Source: Escherichia phage vB_EcoS_I14. From it: 64,000 bases of DNA. The notes beneath the pieces were generated by a model. The model was not told the DNA's origin, made no database searches, and saw only the letters and a program-made list of their open reading frames with translations. Shown in pieces: positions 5,320-46,899 of the stretch. Both the position numbers and the translations under genes were made by a program. Location: sequence record PP892525.1. One strand, written 5' to 3'. The number at the start of each line of letters is the position of its first letter. Within the stretch, counting starts at the first letter, position 1.

Positions 5320-6536
5320 TGGGTTTTAAAAGCTGGATTACTGAAAAGCTAAATCCGGGTCAACGTATTATAAGAGACATGGAACCAGTTAGTCATCGCA
5401 CTAACCGTAAGCCTTTTACCACTGGACAAGCCTACAGTAAAATTGAGATTCTCAATAGAACTGCTAATATGGTTATAGATAGTGCGGCGGAGTGTTCTTA
5501 TACTGTCGGAGATAAATATAATATTGTCACGTATGCCAATGGCATCAAGGCAAAGACTCTAGACACTCTCTTAAATGTACGACCTAATCCATTCATGGAT
5601 ATAAGCACATTCCGTAGACTTGTAGTCACTGACCTACTTTTTGAAGGTTGTGCTTACATCTATTGGGATGGCACAGCACTCTATCATGTCCCTGCTGCAC
5701 TAATGCAAGTAGAGGCAGATGCCAATAAGTTTATCAAAAAATTTATATTTAATAACCAGATAGACTATCGCGTAGATGAGATTATCTTTATAAAGGATAA
5801 CAGTTACGTGTGTGGCACAAATTCTCAAATTTCTGGACAATCTCGTGTTGCCACTGTTATTGATTCTCTTGAGAAGCGTTCTAAGATGCTTAACTTTAAA
5901 GAGAAGTTCCTCGATAACGGAACCGTGATTGGTCTTATTCTTGAGACGGATGAAATCCTGAACAAGAAATTGCGTGAGCGTAAACAAGAAGAATTACAAC
6001 TAGATTATAATCCTAGTACTGGTCAGTCCTCTGTCCTGATTCTAGATGGTGGTATGAAAGCTAAACCGTACTCCCAAATATCCTCTTTTAAAGATCTAGA
6101 CTTTAAGGAAGACATTGAAGGATTTAATAAATCTATCTGTCTAGCCTTTGGTGTTCCGCAAGTGCTACTTGATGGAGGTAATAACGCGAACATTCGACCA
6201 AATATCGAACTGTTCTATTACATGACTATCATCCCTATGCTGAACAAACTGACTAGTTCTCTTACTTTCTTTTTTGGTTATAAGATTACTCCTAATACTA
6301 AGGAAGTAGCTGCATTAACACCAGATAAAGAAGCTGAGGCTAAACATTTAACCTCATTGGTTAATAATGGTATTATGACTGGTAATGAAGCTCGTTTAGA
6401 GCTGAACCTTGAACCTTTAGATGATGAGCAGATGAATAAGATTCGTATTCCTGCTAACGTTGCTGGTTCTGCAACAGGTGTATCTGGTCAAGAAGGTGGC
6501 AGACCTCAAGGTTCCACCGAGGGAGATAAAGAATGA
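5319..6536 (+). CDS. portal protein (pb7-like)
   Basis: 405 aa, position between terminase and protease/capsid, start coupled by TAATG; length close to T5 portal. Confidence 0.85.
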   Translation: MGFKSWITEKLNPGQRIIRDMEPVSHRTNRKPFTTGQAYSKIEILNRTANMVIDSAAECSYTVGDKYNIVTYANGIKAKTLDTLLNVRPNPFMDISTFRRLVVTDLLFEGCAYIYWDGTALYHVPAALMQVEADANKFIKKFIFNNQIDYRVDEIIFIKDNSYVCGTNSQISGQSRVATVIDSLEKRSKMLNFKEKFLDNGTVIGLILETDEILNKKLRERKQEELQLDYNPSTGQSSVLILDGGMKAKPYSQISSFKDLDFKEDIEGFNKSICLAFGVPQVLLDGGNNANIRPNIELFYYMTIIPMLNKLTSSLTFFFGYKITPNTKEVAALTPDKEAEAKHLTSLVNNGIMTGNEARLELNLEPLDDEQMNKIRIPANVAGSATGVSGQEGGRPQGSTEGDKE

Positions 6537-7021
6537 TTGATTATAATGGTCTAAAGACCATTTTTGGTGAAAAACTACCAGAATCTCATATCTTCTTTGC
6601 TACGGTTGCTGCGCATAAATATGTTCCTAGCTATGCTTTTCTACGTAGAGAACTAGGACTTTCATCTGCGCATACTAACCGTAAAGTATGGAAGAAATTT
6701 GTAGAGGCTTATGGTAAAGCAGGTCCAGTAGATGTTGTTCCTGGAGCCCCTACATTGCAGGTAACTCCGGGTGAAAATTCAGTAACTTATACAATTACTG
6801 ACGGTACAAATACCGGCTCACCAATCACTCAGTATAAAGTATACTATACTGATGGGGTTACTGCGAAAACCTATAATTCTGGGTCTTCTAAAACAGGTAC
6901 TATTTCTACCTTAGAAGCAAAAGAGTATACTTTCCAGGCAGTAGCTGTTAATGGGGCAGGAGAATCTCCTAAGTCTACAGCAGTAAAAGCTACCCCAACT
7001 GCACCTGGTGTTGGAGGCTAA
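6533..7021 (+). CDS. capsid decoration protein (pb10-like, Ig/FN3-like C-terminal domain)
   Basis: 162 aa; C-terminal beta-rich segment (PGAPTLQVTPGENSVTYTITDG...) typical of Ig-like decoration domains; position portal-protease. Confidence 0.55.
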   Translation: MIDYNGLKTIFGEKLPESHIFFATVAAHKYVPSYAFLRRELGLSSAHTNRKVWKKFVEAYGKAGPVDVVPGAPTLQVTPGENSVTYTITDGTNTGSPITQYKVYYTDGVTAKTYNSGSSKTGTISTLEAKEYTFQAVAVNGAGESPKSTAVKATPTAPGVGG

Positions 7022-23444: not shown

Positions 23445-23867
23445 ATGAGTACTGAAAATAGAGTTATAGACTTAGTGATAGATGAGAAAGTACCTTATGG
23501 TCTAATGATGCAATTCTTAGATGTTGATGATAGTACTTATCCACCTACAAATACCCCTGTTAACTTAACAGGGTATTCTCTAAGGGGTACTATAAAGACC
23601 GGGCTTGATGAGAACGCGGAAACTTTGGCATCTTTTACTACTAAAATTATTGATGCTGCTCAAGGTGCTATAGCTATAAGTTTACCCGTAGAGGCGGTAG
23701 ATAATATTGGTGAAAAAGCCACCAAAGAGAGAGATAAGTATAACCCTCGCCAACGTTTTGCAGGATACTATGATATAATTATGACACGAGATGTCATAGG
23801 ATCAGCTATTAGCTCTTTTCGTATAATGGAGGGTAAAGTATTTATCAGTGATGGGGTAACTAGATAA
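23445..23867 (+). CDS. collar protein (p132-like, Ig-like fold)
   Basis: 140 aa ORF immediately upstream of lateral fibre gene; length equals T5 p132 (recalled). Confidence 0.6.
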
Positions 23868-26342
23868 TGGCAATAACTACTAAGATTATTGTACAACAAA
23901 TATTAAATATTGATGATACTAAAGCTACTGCTAGTAAATTTCCTAGATACACAGTAACTCTTGGAAACTCTATTAGCTCTATTACTGCTAATGAGTTAGT
24001 ATCCTCTATAGAGGCCGCTGCTAAGTCTGCTGCGGCTGCAAAAGATTCTGAAATAGCTGCTAAAACCTCAGAACTTAATGCTAAGAACTCTGAACAGGAA
24101 GCTGCTATTTCTGCTGGAGCTTCTGAAGCTTCTGCTACTCAGTCTGCTACCTCTGCTACTCAGTCCGCAGCGTCAGCCAATAAGTCTGCAGAATCCGCTG
24201 CCTCAGCTAAAATATCCGAGACTAATGCGAAGACTAGTGAAACTAATGCGAAGACTAGTGAAACTAACTCGAAGACTAGTGAAACTAATGCTGACGCATC
24301 CGCTGCTGCTGCAAAAATTAGTGAGACTAATGCAAAGGCAAGTGAGACTAATGCAGCTCAATCAGCAGCTGATGCAAAACTTAGCGAGGGTAACTCAAAG
24401 GTCAGTGAGACTAATGCAGCTCAATCAGCAGCTGATTCTAGCGGTTTTAGGAATGAGGCGGAAATATTTTCTGGGCAAGCTGCTGCATCGGCATCTGCGG
24501 CAAAAATCTCCGAAACCAATGCAAAAAACTCGGAAACAAATGCTAAGGCTAGTGAAACTACTGCTGCAGGATCTGCAACTTCCGCCAGTCAATCTGTAAC
24601 TACTATTCAAGGACTTAAATCAGATGTTGAGCAGTTAAAATCTGATACCCAGGCTATTAAAAATAGTGCTGTAACAGAGACAACAGCTTTAAAAGCAGAT
24701 GTTGAGCAGTTAAAATCTGATACCAGATGTTGAGCAGTTAAAATCTGATACCCAGGCTATTAAAAATAGTGCTGTAACAGAGACAACAGCTTTAAAAGCA
24801 GATGTTGAGCAGTTAAAATCTGATACACAAGGTATTAAGGATAGCGCGGTATCTGAGACAACAACTTTAAAAAACCAAGCTGCTGCTTCTGCTACACAAG
24901 CGGGTAACAGTGCTGTTGAGGCCGGGCAACAAGCTAGCAATGCTGCTGGTAGTGCAAATAGCTCTAAAGCAGAAGCAGACCGTGCAAAAGCAGAAGCAGA
25001 CCGTGCGGAAGTTGCAGCTAACAGGGCTCCCGATCTTCAACCATTCCCTGACGTATGGATTCCATTTAATGACTCACTTGATATGCTTGCAGGTTATTCA
25101 CCTGGCTATAAGAAAATAACAGTTGGTGAAGATGTTATTACAATGCCTTCTGATAAGGTTGTTAATTTCTCGCGTGCGTCAAATGCAACATACATAAATA
25201 AGCATGGTGAATTTTGCATTGCTAATATCGATGAGCCTAGATTTGAAAAGCAAGGACTCTTAATTGAAGGCCAGCGGACAAACTATATCACTTATAGTAA
25301 TGACCCCGCTTCATTAAATACGGATAAATACCGTAGTGATGTTACTTATAATATTGATAAGTATGGTTTTGCATATGCAACGGCGACAGCAAACGAAAAA
25401 GCACAAAGTGAGTATCCTTCATTATTTTATTGTGAAACAGTAAATGCAATCAACTGTCAGCAAAATGAATACGTTTCTTTATCTATACGAGTAAAGGCAA
25501 ACTTGGGTATCTATATCACACCGCAATTTTATTTAGTAGGTGAGGACGGAGGTCTTATTCTCGGCGCTAGATCTTTCATAAGTTGCAAAACTGGTGAAGT
25601 TTCTTCTGTAGTAGAAGGGAGAGGTACTATAACACATAGAATATATAGAGAAGACAACGGATGGTTGAAAGTTGAAGCTACATGTAAATTTGTAGAACGT
25701 GGTGGTAACTCTATTGGATCTGTAAATTATTGTAGGGAGAATGATCAACCTGTACAGGTTGGGGATACAATATCATTTTGTACCCCACAATTTGAAAAAG
25801 GGTTTTGTGCATCCTCCTTCATTATTACGGGGAGTACACCTGCAACAAGGGCTGTAGATTATATTACTATACCTGCAAGAAATAATTTCTCAGGAACTAA
25901 TATTTCATTACTTGCTGAGGTAAGTATTAACTGGGATAGCTTTCAACTAAATAATACATACCCGATGATAATTGATAATAAGCCATACTACGTAGAAGGA
26001 AAAGCATTTGTTGCGGAATTTGATAGTACCTCCACTACACCTTACGCGTATGTGGTAAATGAGGATGGATCAACTATTTTGTCTAGGGGTTATTCATTTG
26101 AAAAACAATTTTCTCCCCATGTATTTGGTTTTATTTTTAGTGGTAATGGAGATGTCACCTCGTTTGTTAATGGGAATAAGGGTGGTACCTCACACGGTTC
26201 TACCTGGAAAGGAACGGACTCGGACTCGTCAGTAGAAATAGGCGGTAGACCTTCAGATTCAACTAAATTGTACGGTCATATTCGTAACCTTAGAATATGG
26301 AATAGAGTATTAACAGATAGTCAAATGCGGGAGAAAGTTTAA
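23867..26342 (+). pseudogene. lateral (L-shaped) tail fibre shaft gene interrupted by a frameshifting 28-bp tandem duplication
   Basis: ORF 23867..24733 (Ser/Ala/Thr/Asn-rich SETNAKTSETNAK repeats) stops at DTRC*; the original frame continues (frame of ORF 25083..26342) once a 28-nt duplicated segment near 24697..24724 is removed, giving an 815-codon gene. Confidence 0.7.
24622..24875 (+). repeat. tandem 75-nt coding repeats (25-aa DVEQLKSDTQAIKNSAVTETTALKA units) with an extra 28-nt partial copy
   Basis: gatgttgagcagttaaaatctgatac occurs four times; copies 1 and 3 are full 75-nt units, copy 2 is truncated after 26 nt + ca, copy 4 diverges. Confidence 0.8.
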
Positions 26343-26609
26343 GTGAAAGATATTAATTTGCAATTCAAGGATGAAAAACATTATCGGGATGTTGTCGTTG
26401 ATAGTGGGTGGCTTAAGACAAACTACGGTAACGTGTTTATAGATGAAATTGGTTTTATCCCTGTGGTAGACGACCCTAAAAGTAAAACCCCAGCTATTAT
26501 TGGTAAAGAAGGTTATTACATAAATATAAGGATAGTAGGAGATAATATAGACTTGTCAGACATCGAACAATTCATTATTGAGAATCCCGGTGTACGCAAA
26601 TGGGCATAA
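26343..26609 (+). CDS. hypothetical 88-aa protein (GTG start) or in-frame extension of fibre gene beyond TAA
   Basis: Begins with GTG immediately after the TAA of 23867..26342 in the same frame; GGGAGA about 8 nt upstream. Confidence 0.3.
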   Translation: MKDINLQFKDEKHYRDVVVDSGWLKTNYGNVFIDEIGFIPVVDDPKSKTPAIIGKEGYYINIRIVGDNIDLSDIEQFIIENPGVRKWA

Positions 26610-26619
26610 GAGGTGATTA

Positions 26620-28356
26620 ATGACTACTTATACTAATATCCCCCAGGATATTACAAAACTTAAAGACGAAAAGATGGATAAAAACAACAATTTATCCGAT
26701 CTTGCAGACCGTGCAGCAGCATGGTTAAATGTGCGTCCTATTGGGTCCACCCCTCTTGCGGGAGATCCTGTTGGGGACTATGATGCCGCAACTAAACGTT
26801 GGGTAGAGAATAAGATTAACACTGGTACAGTCGGTCCCACTATGAATGGTGTTATGAATTACGGTGTTGGTGATTTCCACCTTCGCGATAGCCGTGCGTA
26901 TATTCAACCTTATGAAGTAGTTTCTGATGGGCAGCTTCTTAACAGGGCTGACTGGCCGGAGCTTTGGGCATACGCTCAAATGGTTGGTGTTATAGAGGAT
27001 TCCGTATGGTTAGCGGATAAATTTCAGCGTGGTAAGTACTCATCTGGGGATGGGATAACAACCTTTCGTGTTCCAGATAAGAATGGGGTGCAGGAGGGAT
27101 CAATACGTGCTCTTTATGGCCGTGGAGATGGTGGGAATAGTGGTGCAAATGGGCAACTGTTCGAATCCGCTGCGCCTAATATCTATGGGCGTATTGCTAG
27201 TTATTCTGGCTCGTCGTATGCTCAGGTATTCAGCGATATCAATCAAGGTGCATTTAGAACAAGTAATGATCTATTCCCTGCTGCGGCAGGTGATGCAATC
27301 CCGATGACGGGTGCAATTTCAATATCTGGGCGCTACAACACCCTTGAGATTGATGCGTCACGCTCAAGCCTGATCTATGGGGCATCAACTGACGAAATCC
27401 TTACACGAAACTTTGTCGGCGTCTGGGTGATTCGTGCATCTGGTGGATTTGTTGCTGCGAATACCTCTTGGAGTGTTATTAATGCTGATAAAGCAACCCC
27501 AGATTCAGGTGTTGTTGTTTCTGGTGGTAGTGTTAAATCTGAATATAAATCGCCCAGTGCAAATGTAACAGCGGAACTAAAATCAAGTAAAGTAATTAAT
27601 GGTGCATGGGGTGTTAGCTTAACTATAACAGATGATAGAGGGATCCCTGTAAGCATTAAGTATGACAGTAATGGTCAGTTTTCAACATCCCATAGGCCGT
27701 CTGGAGTTGGTACAGGGAGCTCTTATAGTCACTGCGCTTATCGCGCGCCAGACTGGTGGAACAACACAGCATATTCTACCTTCGTTCCAATTCTTGGGGG
27801 TGGTAGTGGTAATTCACTAAAGAACTATAGATCTTTTGCTTGTTTTGGACAAATATCTTATCCTGATTCTAGTAATAATTATCCTAGAGCTGCAATTGCT
27901 CAAGTTAGGGATTGGGCACTACCAGATGGTGAACAAGGTAACGGCAAGAGTATTACCGTGTTTACGTTTATTGATAATTCATTTGATATTCAATACGGAT
28001 ACAACGATGGTTCATTAAATTATATCTTTTCAAAATCTCCAATTTGTGATGAAAGATTAAAGAAAAATATTGAATCCATTGATACTAATATTGCAATAAG
28101 CAATATTAAGCAGATGTCATATAAATCATACATCTATAAAAATGACGAGAATGAACAGGTGCGCCGTGGTTTTATAGCTCAGGATTTACAGAAAATAGAT
28201 CCCCAATATGTACGGGAATACGGAGATCCTGGAAGAGAGAAAACGTTAGCCATTGATGAAAACGTTATGTTGCTTGATTCAGTTGCTGCGGTTAAGTGGC
28301 TTATTAATAAAGTTGAGGAGTTGCAAGAAGAAATAAATGTATTGAAAGCTAAGTAA
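26620..28356 (+). CDS. lateral tail fibre receptor-binding protein with C-terminal intramolecular chaperone (peptidase S74-type) domain
   Basis: 578 aa; strong RBS (AAGAGGTGA); C-terminal about 100 aa with DERLKKNIESID...VAAVKWLINKVEELQEEINVLKAK pattern typical of autoproteolytic fibre chaperone domains. Confidence 0.75.
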   Translation: MTTYTNIPQDITKLKDEKMDKNNNLSDLADRAAAWLNVRPIGSTPLAGDPVGDYDAATKRWVENKINTGTVGPTMNGVMNYGVGDFHLRDSRAYIQPYEVVSDGQLLNRADWPELWAYAQMVGVIEDSVWLADKFQRGKYSSGDGITTFRVPDKNGVQEGSIRALYGRGDGGNSGANGQLFESAAPNIYGRIASYSGSSYAQVFSDINQGAFRTSNDLFPAAAGDAIPMTGAISISGRYNTLEIDASRSSLIYGASTDEILTRNFVGVWVIRASGGFVAANTSWSVINADKATPDSGVVVSGGSVKSEYKSPSANVTAELKSSKVINGAWGVSLTITDDRGIPVSIKYDSNGQFSTSHRPSGVGTGSSYSHCAYRAPDWWNNTAYSTFVPILGGGSGNSLKNYRSFACFGQISYPDSSNNYPRAAIAQVRDWALPDGEQGNGKSITVFTFIDNSFDIQYGYNDGSLNYIFSKSPICDERLKKNIESIDTNIAISNIKQMSYKSYIYKNDENEQVRRGFIAQDLQKIDPQYVREYGDPGREKTLAIDENVMLLDSVAAVKWLINKVEELQEEINVLKAK

Positions 28357-28395
28357 AAGAAAACCCCAGTGGACTTTGTCCACTGGGGTTTATTA
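28355..28395. terminator. bidirectional rho-independent terminator at late/early module boundary
   Basis: aaaagaaaa-ccccagtggac-ttt-gtccactgggg-tttatta: 11-bp perfect stem flanked by A-run and T-run between convergent fibre and dUTPase genes. Confidence 0.75.
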
Positions 28396-42385: not shown

Positions 42386-43160
42386 TATTATTTTTCTCCA
42401 ATAGTTCTTTAATCGACAGGATTTCTATCCCATTCGTTTCGGCTTTCTTATAAGATGAGGAAGAACGTTTTGATTCATCCTCACAGATTAGGTATTTGAC
42501 GTCTTTAGTAACGGATTTCTTAACCGTATACCCTAGACTTTCTAAATAGTTTGTTGCATCCGTTCTATTTGCAAAATCTTGCAAAGATCCGGTAATACAT
42601 ACCGCGATTCCATTTGGCTGGGCAACTAATTCATCTGTAATGATGATATTAGCTTTAGTGCCCCTAATACCAGTTGAAAATTTCCACGGTAGTTCGATAA
42701 CATCTTTGCCTTGTGGGGAATTTAGCCAGGCTTTATAATTTTCTCCAGCCTTGCCGTCAGCCTTCACATCGTGGAAGCTAGTGCAATTTTGGGATAATTT
42801 CTTTGCTGCAACCTCTCCAATTAGAGGGATTCCTAAAGAACCGAGAACTGAACCAAAGTCAATGTCTCCGCGAACTTTAGTATTTAATTCGCTAATTAAC
42901 TTAGCGGCAACCTTGCTACCCACGGCTCTAACCAAATCTTCTTCGGTTAGGTAAAATAGTTCTGAAATCTTCGTCAGCTCCAGCTTCTCAATAGTTTTTG
43001 GGCCAAAGCCCTTTAACTTCATTTTTGTACAGAAGTTCTCAATTAACTTACTTGATTGTGCTGGACAGTTGGACTTATTACGACAGAATAATTGTCCGTT
43101 GACAAGATCTAGCTTAGAACCACAAGAGGGACATTGTGTTGGAATTTCGATTTTCATCAA
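42378..43160 (-). CDS. NAD-dependent DNA ligase, C-terminal subunit (Zn finger + HhH)
   Basis: 260 aa; C4 zinc finger (CPSCGSKLD...CRNKSNC) and helix-hairpin-helix (IPLIGEVAAKKL, GIRG). Confidence 0.8.
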   Translation of the reverse strand: MMKIEIPTQCPSCGSKLDLVNGQLFCRNKSNCPAQSSKLIENFCTKMKLKGFGPKTIEKLELTKISELFYLTEEDLVRAVGSKVAAKLISELNTKVRGDIDFGSVLGSLGIPLIGEVAAKKLSQNCTSFHDVKADGKAGENYKAWLNSPQGKDVIELPWKFSTGIRGTKANIIITDELVAQPNGIAVCITGSLQDFANRTDATNYLESLGYTVKKSVTKDVKYLICEDESKRSSSSYKKAETNGIEILSIKELLEKNNNV

Positions 43161-43187
43161 ATTTCTTCCTTATCAATTTATATAAAT

Positions 43188-43216
43188 ATTATAGCAAGTA
43201 TTTAAGCATTTAGCAA
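43188..43216 (-). promoter_or_regulatory. early sigma70 promoter between the two ligase genes (TTGCTA-17-TATAAT)
   Basis: Reverse complement: ttgcta aatgcttaaatacttgc tataat, in the 199-bp spacer separating ligase halves. Confidence 0.6.
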
Positions 43217-43359
43217 CTACAATTTTAACTAACTTTGCTTACCCTCGCCATAACTTTCTATCCCTCAACTGAATGATAATAGTATATACCTAAGCGGCGA
43301 AAATGTCAATAACCACTTTATAATTCCGATATGGTAGATGGGTAGCAAAGGGTTATGTA

Positions 43360-44331
43360 TTAATCGTATACTCGCTCTACTATGCACGGGATTACACCAC
43401 CAGCACGAATCACTCGAATCTGGCAACCGATCTCTAGATCAAGAGAGTTAATATAATCAACGTTATTAAGAGTCGCTTTAACAATTGTAGCGTCATCAAT
43501 AATTACCGGTTCGAAATAACCAACTGGAGTTACTTTACCAGAAGCCCCTACCTGCCATTCAACTTTAGTAAGAGTTGTAATCTCGCCTTCTTCATCCTCT
43601 TTAATAGCGAATGCCCCACGAGGGAATTTATTAGTCCAGCCTTCACGGAAGAATTTGTTGTTGTCATTAATACGAACAACTTTACCGTCCGTCGGAATCC
43701 ATTTAAAGAAGGAACGCACATTAACAACTGTTAAGAAATCTTCATTCTCTAGCCAGAGCATATCTTTTAAATATGATTCTGTAATACCTACAGATTCAGC
43801 AGAACACTGGATACCGTATGCAACAAAGATTAAACCACCTTCCCCGATACGTTGTACGAAATCATCGCTATCTTTGAGGTTAATAGCGCCAGAGGCAAAG
43901 TTACGTTTATTTTCTACTTCTTTTGTAATTAGAACTTCACCAGTAATTTGAGTAGGTACTTTTTGGGAAATCTTTTTAGGGATGTTCAGCAATCTTACGT
44001 TGCTTGTGACATCATTCCCTAGAATGCCATTACCGCGAGTTAGTGCTTGAACAAATTCGCCATTAATATATAACAGAGAAATCGCACAACCATCTAACTT
44101 ATCAGTTTCTACCTGACCTAATGGGTTAAACGGAGGTTTATCCCCACGATTATAATAAACTTTCTGTAAAGAATACATACGATACAGATGTGGAATATCT
44201 CCCTTAGGCCCAATCTCTTCCTCTAGTGGGAATCTTTTAATCAGACGATCATATTCTTCGTCAGAGATTAAAGACATTCCCTGGTAATACGCTTCTTGGC
44301 AACGTTTAATAAAGTCTTTTACATTAGTCAT
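43360..44331 (-). CDS. NAD-dependent DNA ligase, N-terminal subunit (adenylation + OB domain)
   Basis: 323 aa; adenylation lysine motif KLDG (ETDKLDGCAIS) and downstream nucleotidyltransferase/OB motifs. Confidence 0.8.
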   Translation of the reverse strand: MTNVKDFIKRCQEAYYQGMSLISDEEYDRLIKRFPLEEEIGPKGDIPHLYRMYSLQKVYYNRGDKPPFNPLGQVETDKLDGCAISLLYINGEFVQALTRGNGILGNDVTSNVRLLNIPKKISQKVPTQITGEVLITKEVENKRNFASGAINLKDSDDFVQRIGEGGLIFVAYGIQCSAESVGITESYLKDMLWLENEDFLTVVNVRSFFKWIPTDGKVVRINDNNKFFREGWTNKFPRGAFAIKEDEEGEITTLTKVEWQVGASGKVTPVGYFEPVIIDDATIVKATLNNVDYINSLDLEIGCQIRVIRAGGVIPCIVERVYD

Positions 44332-45627: not shown

Positions 45628-45915
45628 CTACACATCTAGCTCAACGATCTCCCAATCATCCGCCAGAGCTTCTTCTAGGGTTAGGGAGGAGGTTTTCCAT
45701 GTTGCGTCTTTTATATCGAACTTGGTATACCCATCTTCATTGGGCCACCAGGTAAACTCGACAATATCATTATTATCAACATCTACTTTTATAATAGTAG
45801 AGTAATAAGTACGAGAGTCCCAATTACCCCAGCTATCCCGCTGGAGATATTTTACATCTCCATCTTTGAGCAAATCTGTTAGCTTACTCACGGCGTTTTC
45901 CTTTTTCTTTATCAA
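45628..45915 (-). CDS. hypothetical protein
   Basis: 95 aa ORF, Trp-rich, coupled to upstream gene. Confidence 0.45.
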   Translation of the reverse strand: MIKKKENAVSKLTDLLKDGDVKYLQRDSWGNWDSRTYYSTIIKVDVDNNDIVEFTWWPNEDGYTKFDIKDATWKTSSLTLEEALADDWEIVELDV

Positions 45916-46588
45916 GCTTCAGGGCGGCCTTAACAGCTTCGTTAATCAACGTAATAATTTCTTCACGAGTCCACTTGTACCCTAGAGATTTTACGTCAAC
46001 CCCTAGTTTTTCCAGATGTTTAACAGAAGCCAGCTCGTAATTCATATAATGAACGTTCTGTTGTTTGCCTTCCGATAGAAGCCATACACGGTAACAACCA
46101 ACAGGATTATCCATTGCTTTTTTGATTTCACCGATACACTGGTATCCAGGAACCCAAACAAGCTCACCAACTGCAAATTCTTCTGCTACAGCATCATCAG
46201 GAATAATCGGAGGATTCAATGGATCTACAATATCGTTCAAACGAAGTAGAGCACCATAGCGTTCCAGAACAGATTTAACCATTGCTACAGAGCGGTAATT
46301 ACGATCGGCAATTTCTTCAAAAGAATCACCAGATAAATACTGCTCAATAACGTTAGCTAACTCGATGCCTTCAATAAGTGTGCCACGTTTCTTTTTCTTC
46401 ATTTCGGCAACTTGAATTTGGCGATCTTGCCACTCTTCAATCATCCTTTCCATAGTTGGATTGGATGATACGCCGAGCATTTCACATGCTGCTTTCTTAG
46501 TACCACCGTTCTCCAGATGCTCTATAACCTTTTTAAAGACTTCATCAGGGATTTCATGGATATGTTTCTTTCTACGAGAACCAGCCAT
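45884..46588 (-). CDS. putative HTH DNA-binding protein
   Basis: 234 aa; N-terminal HTH-like segment (GGTKKAACEMLGVSSNPTMERMIEEW). Confidence 0.5.
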   Translation of the reverse strand: MAGSRRKKHIHEIPDEVFKKVIEHLENGGTKKAACEMLGVSSNPTMERMIEEWQDRQIQVAEMKKKKRGTLIEGIELANVIEQYLSGDSFEEIADRNYRSVAMVKSVLERYGALLRLNDIVDPLNPPIIPDDAVAEEFAVGELVWVPGYQCIGEIKKAMDNPVGCYRVWLLSEGKQQNVHYMNYELASVKHLEKLGVDVKSLGYKWTREEIITLINEAVKAALKLDKEKGKRRE

Positions 46589-46619
46589 ATTTAAACTCCT
46601 CTCTCAAATTTATAAATCT

Positions 46620-46648
46620 ATTATACAGAAATTTTTTGCACTATGCAA
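46620..46648 (-). promoter_or_regulatory. strong early promoter, closely resembling classical T5 promoters (TTGCAT-17-TATAAT + ATAGATTTATAAATTTGAGAGAGGAG leader)
   Basis: Reverse complement: aaatttatttgcatagtgcaaaaaatttctgtataatagatttataaatttgagagaggag; strongly resembles the T5 N25-type promoter as I recall it. Confidence 0.65.
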
Positions 46649-46656
46649 ATAAATTT

Positions 46657-46899
46657 TTACGATTCCTTGAGCAAAGAAGCAAGTTCAGCATAGACTTTAT
46701 CTAACTCAAAGCCGATGCGAAGAGACACGTTAGTTTTCCGTTGTTTAAGTAACCACTCGGATATGTTAGGGATGCCAGCTAATCTATGTGGTACCACCCT
46801 ACATAGCTTTTCCGAAGTGTCGTAAACAGGAACTTTACGTTCTTTTACTGGGAACTTCCTTGTTTCCCATTTTTTATTCTTCACTGTCATTTCTAGCAC
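46657..46899 (-). CDS. hypothetical protein
   Basis: 80 aa ORF overlapping 3' end of large ATPase gene. Confidence 0.4.
   Translation of the reverse strand: MLEMTVKNKKWETRKFPVKERKVPVYDTSEKLCRVVPHRLAGIPNISEWLLKQRKTNVSLRIGFELDKVYAELASLLKES

Follow-up and report, generated by a model that had tools for sequence, protein, structure and literature searches.

Gene content of the lateral-fibre operon

The window analysed here is a stretch of 64,000 nt from the genome of Escherichia phage vB_EcoS_I14 (PP892525.1), which is placed in the genus Tequintavirus (T5-like) by its gene order and its Pfam matches. A 24-kb stretch of the window is matched over at least 80% of its length by 248 phage records, with identities of up to about 95%, and because the genomes nearest to the window are only about 93–97% identical to it, a near-isogenic comparator is absent. 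The lateral tail-fibre genes and the features associated with them are arranged as follows.

23445–23867, forward strand: ltfC, encoding a 140-aa collar protein to which the lateral fibres are anchored (Pfam PF23926 LtfC, E = 5.5e-15)
23867–26342, forward strand: ltfA-type lateral tail-fibre gene, 2476 nt as given (gene order and homology)
23867–24733, forward strand: 5′ part of ltfA, with a 288-aa product and a premature TGA at 24731–24733 (ORF list)
24714–26342, forward strand: continuing frame of ltfA, corresponding to the C-terminal 539 residues of the repaired protein (translation and ORF list)
25857–26324, forward strand: Concanavalin-A-like/Laminin_G_3 domain of LtfA (Pfam PF13385, E = 8e-9; residues 655–810 of the repaired protein)
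26343–26609, forward strand: conserved 88-aa gene between the two fibre genes, function unassigned (ORF; the gene is shared by relatives)
26620–28356, forward strand: second lateral-fibre gene, LtfB-like, 578 aa (Pfam PF13884 Peptidase_S74, E = 3.9e-14; synteny with relatives)
28361–28391, no strand assigned: bidirectional terminator-like hairpin closing the fibre operon (stem of 14 pairs with a run of T after it on each strand)

The start of ltfA at 23867 coincides with the end of the gene that carries the PF23926 match, ltfC, and it is on this position, together with homology over the full length, that the gene is assigned as the Tequintavirus lateral tail-fibre gene. An identical LtfC protein is encoded directly upstream of ltfA on many Tequintavirus contigs, and ltfC is followed by ltfA, as in the window, on 10 related contigs. 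The coordinates of the Laminin_G_3 domain were obtained by conversion from the repaired form of ltfA described below, and this domain is likely to be the receptor-binding end of LtfA. The conserved 88-aa gene that follows had no match in a Pfam search; its Shine–Dalgarno-like sequence, GGGAGAAAG, lies inside the end of ltfA. The gene for the 578-aa LtfB-like protein, which has a C-terminal intramolecular chaperone domain (Peptidase_S74), likewise has a Shine–Dalgarno-like sequence of its own, and the hairpin at the end of the operon occupies a position that matches terminators in the Lindwurm annotation.

This order of ltfC, ltfA, a small ORF and a fibre gene with an S74 chaperone is shared with the two-protein fibre of the DT57C type, which is composed of an LtfC collar, LtfA and LtfB, and the full-length LtfA homologues are 87–92% identical; the difference lies in the Laminin_G_3 domain found in the C-terminal half of the window LtfA. 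In DT57C the N-terminal segment of LtfA threads into the LtfC ring or collar and is followed, from near residue 40, by a trimeric helix or coiled coil (PMC10713586), and LtfB docks on LtfA (PMC4728585). We note that a frameshift error in the T5 reference sequence has been reported by Ayala et al. for the neighbouring gene ltfC (PMC10713586).

The C-terminal two-thirds of LtfA (24723–26339, including the Laminin_G_3 end) is 74–84% identical, in a match that covers about 64% of the query, to the lateral fibres of siphoviruses with genomes of about 60 kb and of E. coli prophages, all of which carry a different N-terminal domain (PF08400). This relationship suggests that receptor-binding modules have been exchanged between phage groups. 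As to the LtfB-like S74 gene, two overlapping ORFs, one of 313 aa and one of 249 aa, stand in place of a single ORF of about 576 aa in the Logan contig ERR13966362_839 (1932–3607) from a related phage, perhaps because this second lateral-fibre gene is frameshifted there.

The repeat block and the split reading frame

The two parts of ltfA meet within a block of tandem coding repeats, in which three overlapping features are distinguished.

24621–24872, forward strand: block of 75-nt coding repeats (Tandem Repeats Finder periods of 75, 103 and 28; unit layout by script)
24621–24826, forward strand: perfect 103-nt (75 + 28) tandem duplication, (A B A)(A B A) (Tandem Repeats Finder, 100% identity, exactly 2.0 copies)
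24696–24751, forward strand: two adjacent 28-nt A copies, one of which is extra sequence absent from relatives (alignments with seven relatives)

The repeat unit is composed of a 28-nt segment, A, and a 47-nt segment, B, and the order of these in the window is A B A A B A B″. The 28-mer A (CAGATGTTGAGCAGTTAAAATCTGATAC) is present in four mismatch-free copies, at 24621, 24696, 24724 and 24799, where none would be expected by chance, and the second and third of these are directly adjacent, with 24696–24723 identical to 24724–24751. Tandem Repeats Finder accordingly lists a 28-nt period at 24696–24752, with 2.0 copies at 100% identity, within the 75-nt coding repeat. The letters that meet at the junction of the two A copies are ...AAATCTGATAC and CAGATGTTGAGC..., which can also be written as TCTGATAC and CAGATGTTG, and only 1 nt at this junction is shared with the parent sequences (the Tandem Repeats Finder span is 57 = 2 × 28 + 1).

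The same bases also form the perfect 103-nt tandem duplication, which had gone unmentioned in the sequence-only reading and which is bounded by mismatches on both sides (T/C at 24620/24723 and C/A at 24724/24827). Two histories are therefore possible, and the block may be read either as a gain of 28 nt in a three-copy allele or as a gain of 103 nt in a two-copy allele; both lengths are of the form 3n + 1 and both yield the identical sequence. One related viral contig (L014) does have a two-copy allele. No exact repeat in the repaired three-copy allele, A B A B A B″, is longer than A B A, which measures 103 nt and recurs at an offset of 75, and the ends of the duplication in the window coincide exactly with the ends of this repeat. 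The copies are 100% identical at both the 28-nt and the 103-nt periods.

The upstream ORF (23867–24733) encodes 288 aa and ends with ...KSDTRC at the TGA at 24731–24733, and its product aligns collinearly with the opening third of the intact genes (815 aa) that relatives carry. From 24714 the third forward frame runs uninterrupted to a stop at 26340–26342, and the two frames overlap at 24714–24730 (AAA TCT GAT ACC AGA TGT TGA). Deletion of one A copy gives a single ORF of 2448 nt encoding 815 aa with a C-terminal Laminin_G_3 domain, and this is the repaired ltfA to which we refer throughout. That an internal restart might rescue the fibre was considered and rejected, as the first ATG, GTG or TTG start codon of the continuing frame is found only at 25083 (ATG) and initiation there would give a 419-aa fragment without the tail-attachment part. 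The sequence-only reading had described a 28-nt partial copy inserted among 75-nt repeats, a gene that terminates after DTRC at 24733 and an original frame that continues intact to 26342; the insertion is confirmed by the exact copies, by Tandem Repeats Finder and by a clean gap relative to other phages, and the two statements about the frames agree with the position of the TGA and with a translation that is open from 24714.

We also note that the first third of ltfA (24114–24543) is made up of 21-nt and 63-nt tandem coding repeats with SETNAK-type motifs (Tandem Repeats Finder: 63-nt period, 2.9 copies, 81%), and that other public contigs also break there (L096 and L097).

Comparison with related phages

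Comparison with related phage fibre genes had been proposed in the same reading, and the extra 28 nt prove to be missing from seven relatives (ESCO40, APCEc03, PH204, AKFV33, NBEco002, FFH_1 and an ENA contig), whose alignments show a clean 28-nt gap; BLAST over the full 2476-nt gene also gives a 28-nt gap. In ESCO40 and APCEc03 the gene is annotated as one intact 2448-nt CDS, and it is intact and 2448 nt long in NBEco002 and in the ENA contig. An impression gained from megablast, that many relatives are 103 nt shorter, was rejected, since full-length blastn shows 2448-nt genes and L014 alone has two copies. Fibre proteins of about 815 aa from ESCO40, FFH_1 and two more relatives share 87–92% identity with the repaired LtfA over 100% of its length, and the repaired LtfA is 56% identical to the 'lateral tail fiber protein' of IrisVonRoten. 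The 75-nt copies in the relatives differ from one another at several positions, and the third A copy of the window is present in no relative.

After removal of the 28 nt, ltfA aligns without gaps to four relatives, and the dN/dS ratios against these are 0.15–0.28 upstream of the shift, 0.08–0.19 downstream of it and 0.05–0.22 in the C-terminal globular part. These values indicate that the downstream half of ltfA is under strong purifying selection, with neither decay nor any other lesion to be seen. Purifying selection that acts up to the present on a part of the gene that would go untranslated implies that the lesion is either very recent or unreal.

The condition of the remainder of the window was assessed by tblastn with 50 Lindwurm genes, 48 of which have a single-frame match; ltfA is the only gene that is split across frames. 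One partial match (6533–7021) corresponds to an intact 162-aa ORF with a divergent C-terminus. The idea of a generally poor assembly was therefore rejected, 48 of the 50 genes being in a single frame and ltfA alone being split. An otherwise clean assembly argues against a random sequencing error and is compatible with either of the main hypotheses considered below.

No second instance of the junction was found in the public collections that were searched. The 18-nt junction has only five matches in viral contigs, all unrelated and attributable to chance, and none in metagenome contigs; no related viral contig was found to carry the junction of the two A copies. Viral contigs also lack the A-to-B″ junction that is specific to the window, and nothing in the phage collection matches the A-to-B″ stretch at more than about 96% identity. 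A protein look-up has neither the exact 288-aa product nor the exact 578-aa product on record.

Two other departures from Lindwurm emerged from this comparison. The 162-aa ORF (6533–7021), which follows the portal gene, matches Lindwurm over its first 73 residues only, and its C-terminal half is a different module that is rich in T, G and V. A counterpart of the Lindwurm HNH endonuclease gene (43157–43615) is absent from the window, where 45634–45891 and 46588–46877 were compared, and a small ORF that neighbours the missing gene is only 38% identical to that of Lindwurm; this difference looks like the presence or absence of a mobile gene.

A contig-joining artefact as the probable origin of the extra 28 nt

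We favour the interpretation that the 28-nt insertion was produced when the ends of a contig were joined, and that the phage itself probably has an intact 2448-nt gene encoding an 815-aa LtfA. The true ltfA would have three 75-nt copies, as in the relatives, the first two of which would be identical to each other and to the start of the third, giving a perfect run A B A B A of 178 nt. A de Bruijn-graph assembler would be unable to count the copies in such a run, and a circular-looking assembly of the T5 type would break there, leaving a contig with A B A (103 nt), the longest exact repeat, at its start and again at its end. If the end were then pasted to the start untrimmed, on joining or on rotation, the product would read ...A B A followed by A B A B″, which exceeds the true A B A B A B″ by 28 nt and shifts the frame. 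The sequence-only reading had offered an assembly error in a repeat as one of two options, and it is this option that we retain, in the more specific form of an untrimmed contig-end overlap at a perfect repeat.

The artefact was simulated by a non-branching walk through a de Bruijn graph of a circularized 30-kb piece carrying the repaired three-copy allele. When k is 55, 77 or 99, the walk halts at the repeat on either side and leaves a contig whose two ends are both A B A (a 103-nt overlap), and the naive join of these ends contains the observed block exactly; a direct concatenation check also reproduces the block from the three-copy allele. With k = 21–31 there is no match to the block in the window, since other short repeats intervene. 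A true two-copy allele, in a contig that runs from the start of the first A round the circle to the end of the second, reproduces the sequence on paper; this form of the artefact is less likely because in the simulation the walk passes unbroken through a two-copy allele when k ≥ 55, and for k = 21–31 the joins differ from the window sequence. An artefact of this kind predicts that the duplication should end on repeat ends, as a random duplication would rarely do; by our own estimate both ends of a random duplication would be in phase in fewer than 1 in 1000 cases, or about (2/75)^2.

Public assemblies of related phages break at the same locus. Among the Logan and ENA contigs that encode an identical LtfC, 5 of 10 stop within the 75-nt block and a further two in the 21/63-nt repeats that immediately precede it. 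Of the 10 contigs with an identical 88-aa gene, 9 start inside the 75-nt block; ERR4504456_362, a whole-genome contig of 108,226 bp, has both its ends within the block. The GenBank 'complete genomes' of phC17 (OQ680481.1) and phA11 (OQ680478.1) also have their record ends in the block, with untrimmed overlaps of 114 and 66 nt respectively, and the phC17 record begins and ends no more than 1 nt away from the limits of its exact repeat of 41 nt. A record of this type, if rotated without trimming, would acquire an internal tandem duplication of the kind seen in the window. Short-read assemblies of T5-type genomes usually consist of one circular-looking contig, which is then rotated by the authors to a conventional start, and an untrimmed join is thus a realistic step. 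T5-type genomes have long terminal repeats (PMC10644984), and it has been noted that short-read assemblies made with SPAdes can yield artefactual terminal repeats (2026 INPHARED phage database preprint, doi 10.64898/2026.05.06.722914). Contig-end overlaps of this SPAdes type and the duplication in the window are alike in being perfect, in having a length set by the repeat or k-mer structure and in lying at the assembly break point of the group; the duplicate in the window is, however, internal and not at the ends of the record, and an extra joining or rotation step has to be assumed. From the layout of the sequence, the break-prone locus and the exact reproduction by simulation, all of which are observed, we infer that the present record was assembled and joined in this manner.

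Some features weigh on the other side. The model requires that the repeat copies of this phage be unusually uniform, which is an assumption about the true allele, although uniform copies would themselves explain why the assembly broke. The ends of the phA11 record do not fall exactly on repeat boundaries, so that assemblers evidently do not always stop there. Moreover, the perfect copies, the intact downstream frame and the uniqueness of the sequence are equally predicted by a very recent real duplication.

Alternative origins of the duplication

Fibre-less mutants of T5 are classical, and a real, very recent tandem duplication in the sequenced stock, of 28 nt in a three-copy allele or of 103 nt in a two-copy allele, with inactivation of LtfA, is an alternative that we regard as possible but doubtful. 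The frameshift is present in the sequence as given, the intact downstream frame and the low dN/dS are compatible with a recent event, the remainder of the window looks cleanly assembled, and two-copy and three-copy alleles are both found in nature. The earlier statement that lateral fibres are dispensable on rough hosts accords with reports that E. coli C600 and hosts like it need no lateral fibres (PMC4728585, PMC10713586); the ltf locus has been described as a hot spot for mutation where passage on C600 selected for a deletion, and the ltfA–ltfB deletion of DT530(1) is a T5-like lateral-fibre mutant selected on a rough host (PMC4728585). Such mutants have in common with the window the operon affected and the phenotype to be expected, in which adsorption that depends on O-antigen would be lost and the phage would remain viable on rough E. 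coli (PMC4728585). The documented ltf mutants are homologous-recombination deletions, in-frame changes in repeat copy number and engineered nonsense mutations, however, and none is a 28-nt out-of-frame duplication. The slipped-strand mutation that the sequence-only reading had put forward fits poorly and is the weaker of its two options: slippage between 75-nt units would give in-frame changes of 75 nt, of the frame-keeping kind reported for the repeat copy number of DT571/2 LtfA (PMC4728585), whereas the change here is +28 nt against a three-copy allele or +103 nt against a two-copy allele, neither a multiple of 75, and the new junction lies outside homologous sequence, with only 1 nt of microhomology. 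No mutational mechanism accounts for the placement, under either history, of both ends on the ends of a perfect repeat, as the joining artefact does; no independent occurrence of the junction was found among viral and metagenome contigs; and a perfect tandem of 206 nt is hard for short reads, such that a correct short-read record of a real duplication is not the expected outcome.

A different role for the extra sequence would be a programmed +1 ribosomal frameshift, giving both a short and a full-length LtfA, or an unstable duplication that serves as a reversible on/off switch for the fibre, and we consider either to be highly improbable. The frames overlap at 24714–24730, and a single +1 shift there would in principle restore the full protein. 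By inspection alone we recognized in this overlap no slippery motif (+1 or −1) with a stimulator, and there is neither a known +1 slippery pattern nor a long run of A or T for transcriptional slippage; the gene contains three further copies of this 28-mer, all read in frame; none of the relatives examined has the insertion, and in all those compared one uninterrupted frame crosses the site. On these grounds, the lack of a motif and the lack of conservation, we rejected both programmed frameshifting and transcriptional slippage. Perfect tandem duplications revert readily, and a real duplication could conceivably be kept as an unstable copy, with the fibres off where they are useless and on again after precise loss of the copy; fibres are indeed needed on some hosts and not on others (PMC4728585). 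The host range of a T5-like phage would then be under a simple, heritable on/off switch, but no second instance of the junction was found in the public collections searched, and we give the idea very little credence. That there is anything functional in the duplication seems to us extremely unlikely.

Consequences for the fibre and for the sequence record

If the duplication were real, LtfA would be truncated after residue 286, with the addition of two out-of-frame residues. By analogy with DT57C (PMC10713586), the stub would still have the segment at its N-terminus that binds LtfC, with some 245 residues of coiled coil, and would lack the remainder of the shaft and the Laminin_G_3 receptor-binding end, leaving stub fibres. 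The 578-aa protein might be lost as well, if it docks on LtfA as DT57C LtfB does (PMC4728585). Any polar effect on its gene and on the 88-aa gene could come only from Rho, because both have Shine–Dalgarno-like sequences of their own. Loss of O-antigen binding by the lateral fibre would be tolerated or selected on rough laboratory hosts, and the phage would be expected to grow on rough E. coli and to fail on hosts that require O-antigen binding by this fibre (PMC4728585; PMC10713586). It would then be one more case of the well-known loss of lateral fibres in T5-like phages on rough laboratory strains.

If, as we think probable, the extra 28 nt arose when contig ends were joined, the record wrongly depicts a fibre-less phage with a split ltfA, and it could mislead the prediction of host range and the choice of phages for therapy. 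The finding is an ordinary one under either main reading and raises no new biological question; its value lies mainly in quality control, as a flag for a record that is likely to be mis-joined.

The same repeat block harms other public Tequintavirus records, and those of phC17, phA11 and PH204 start or end inside the gene. In phA11 and phC17 the split ltfA is annotated only as a misc_feature, 'similar to tail fibers protein'. The record of PH204 (OR492254.1; positions 1–810) starts about 400 nt into ltfA, in the upstream repeat region, with the 5′ part of the gene at the opposite end; the annotation covers the 3′ part alone, which is listed as a hypothetical protein.
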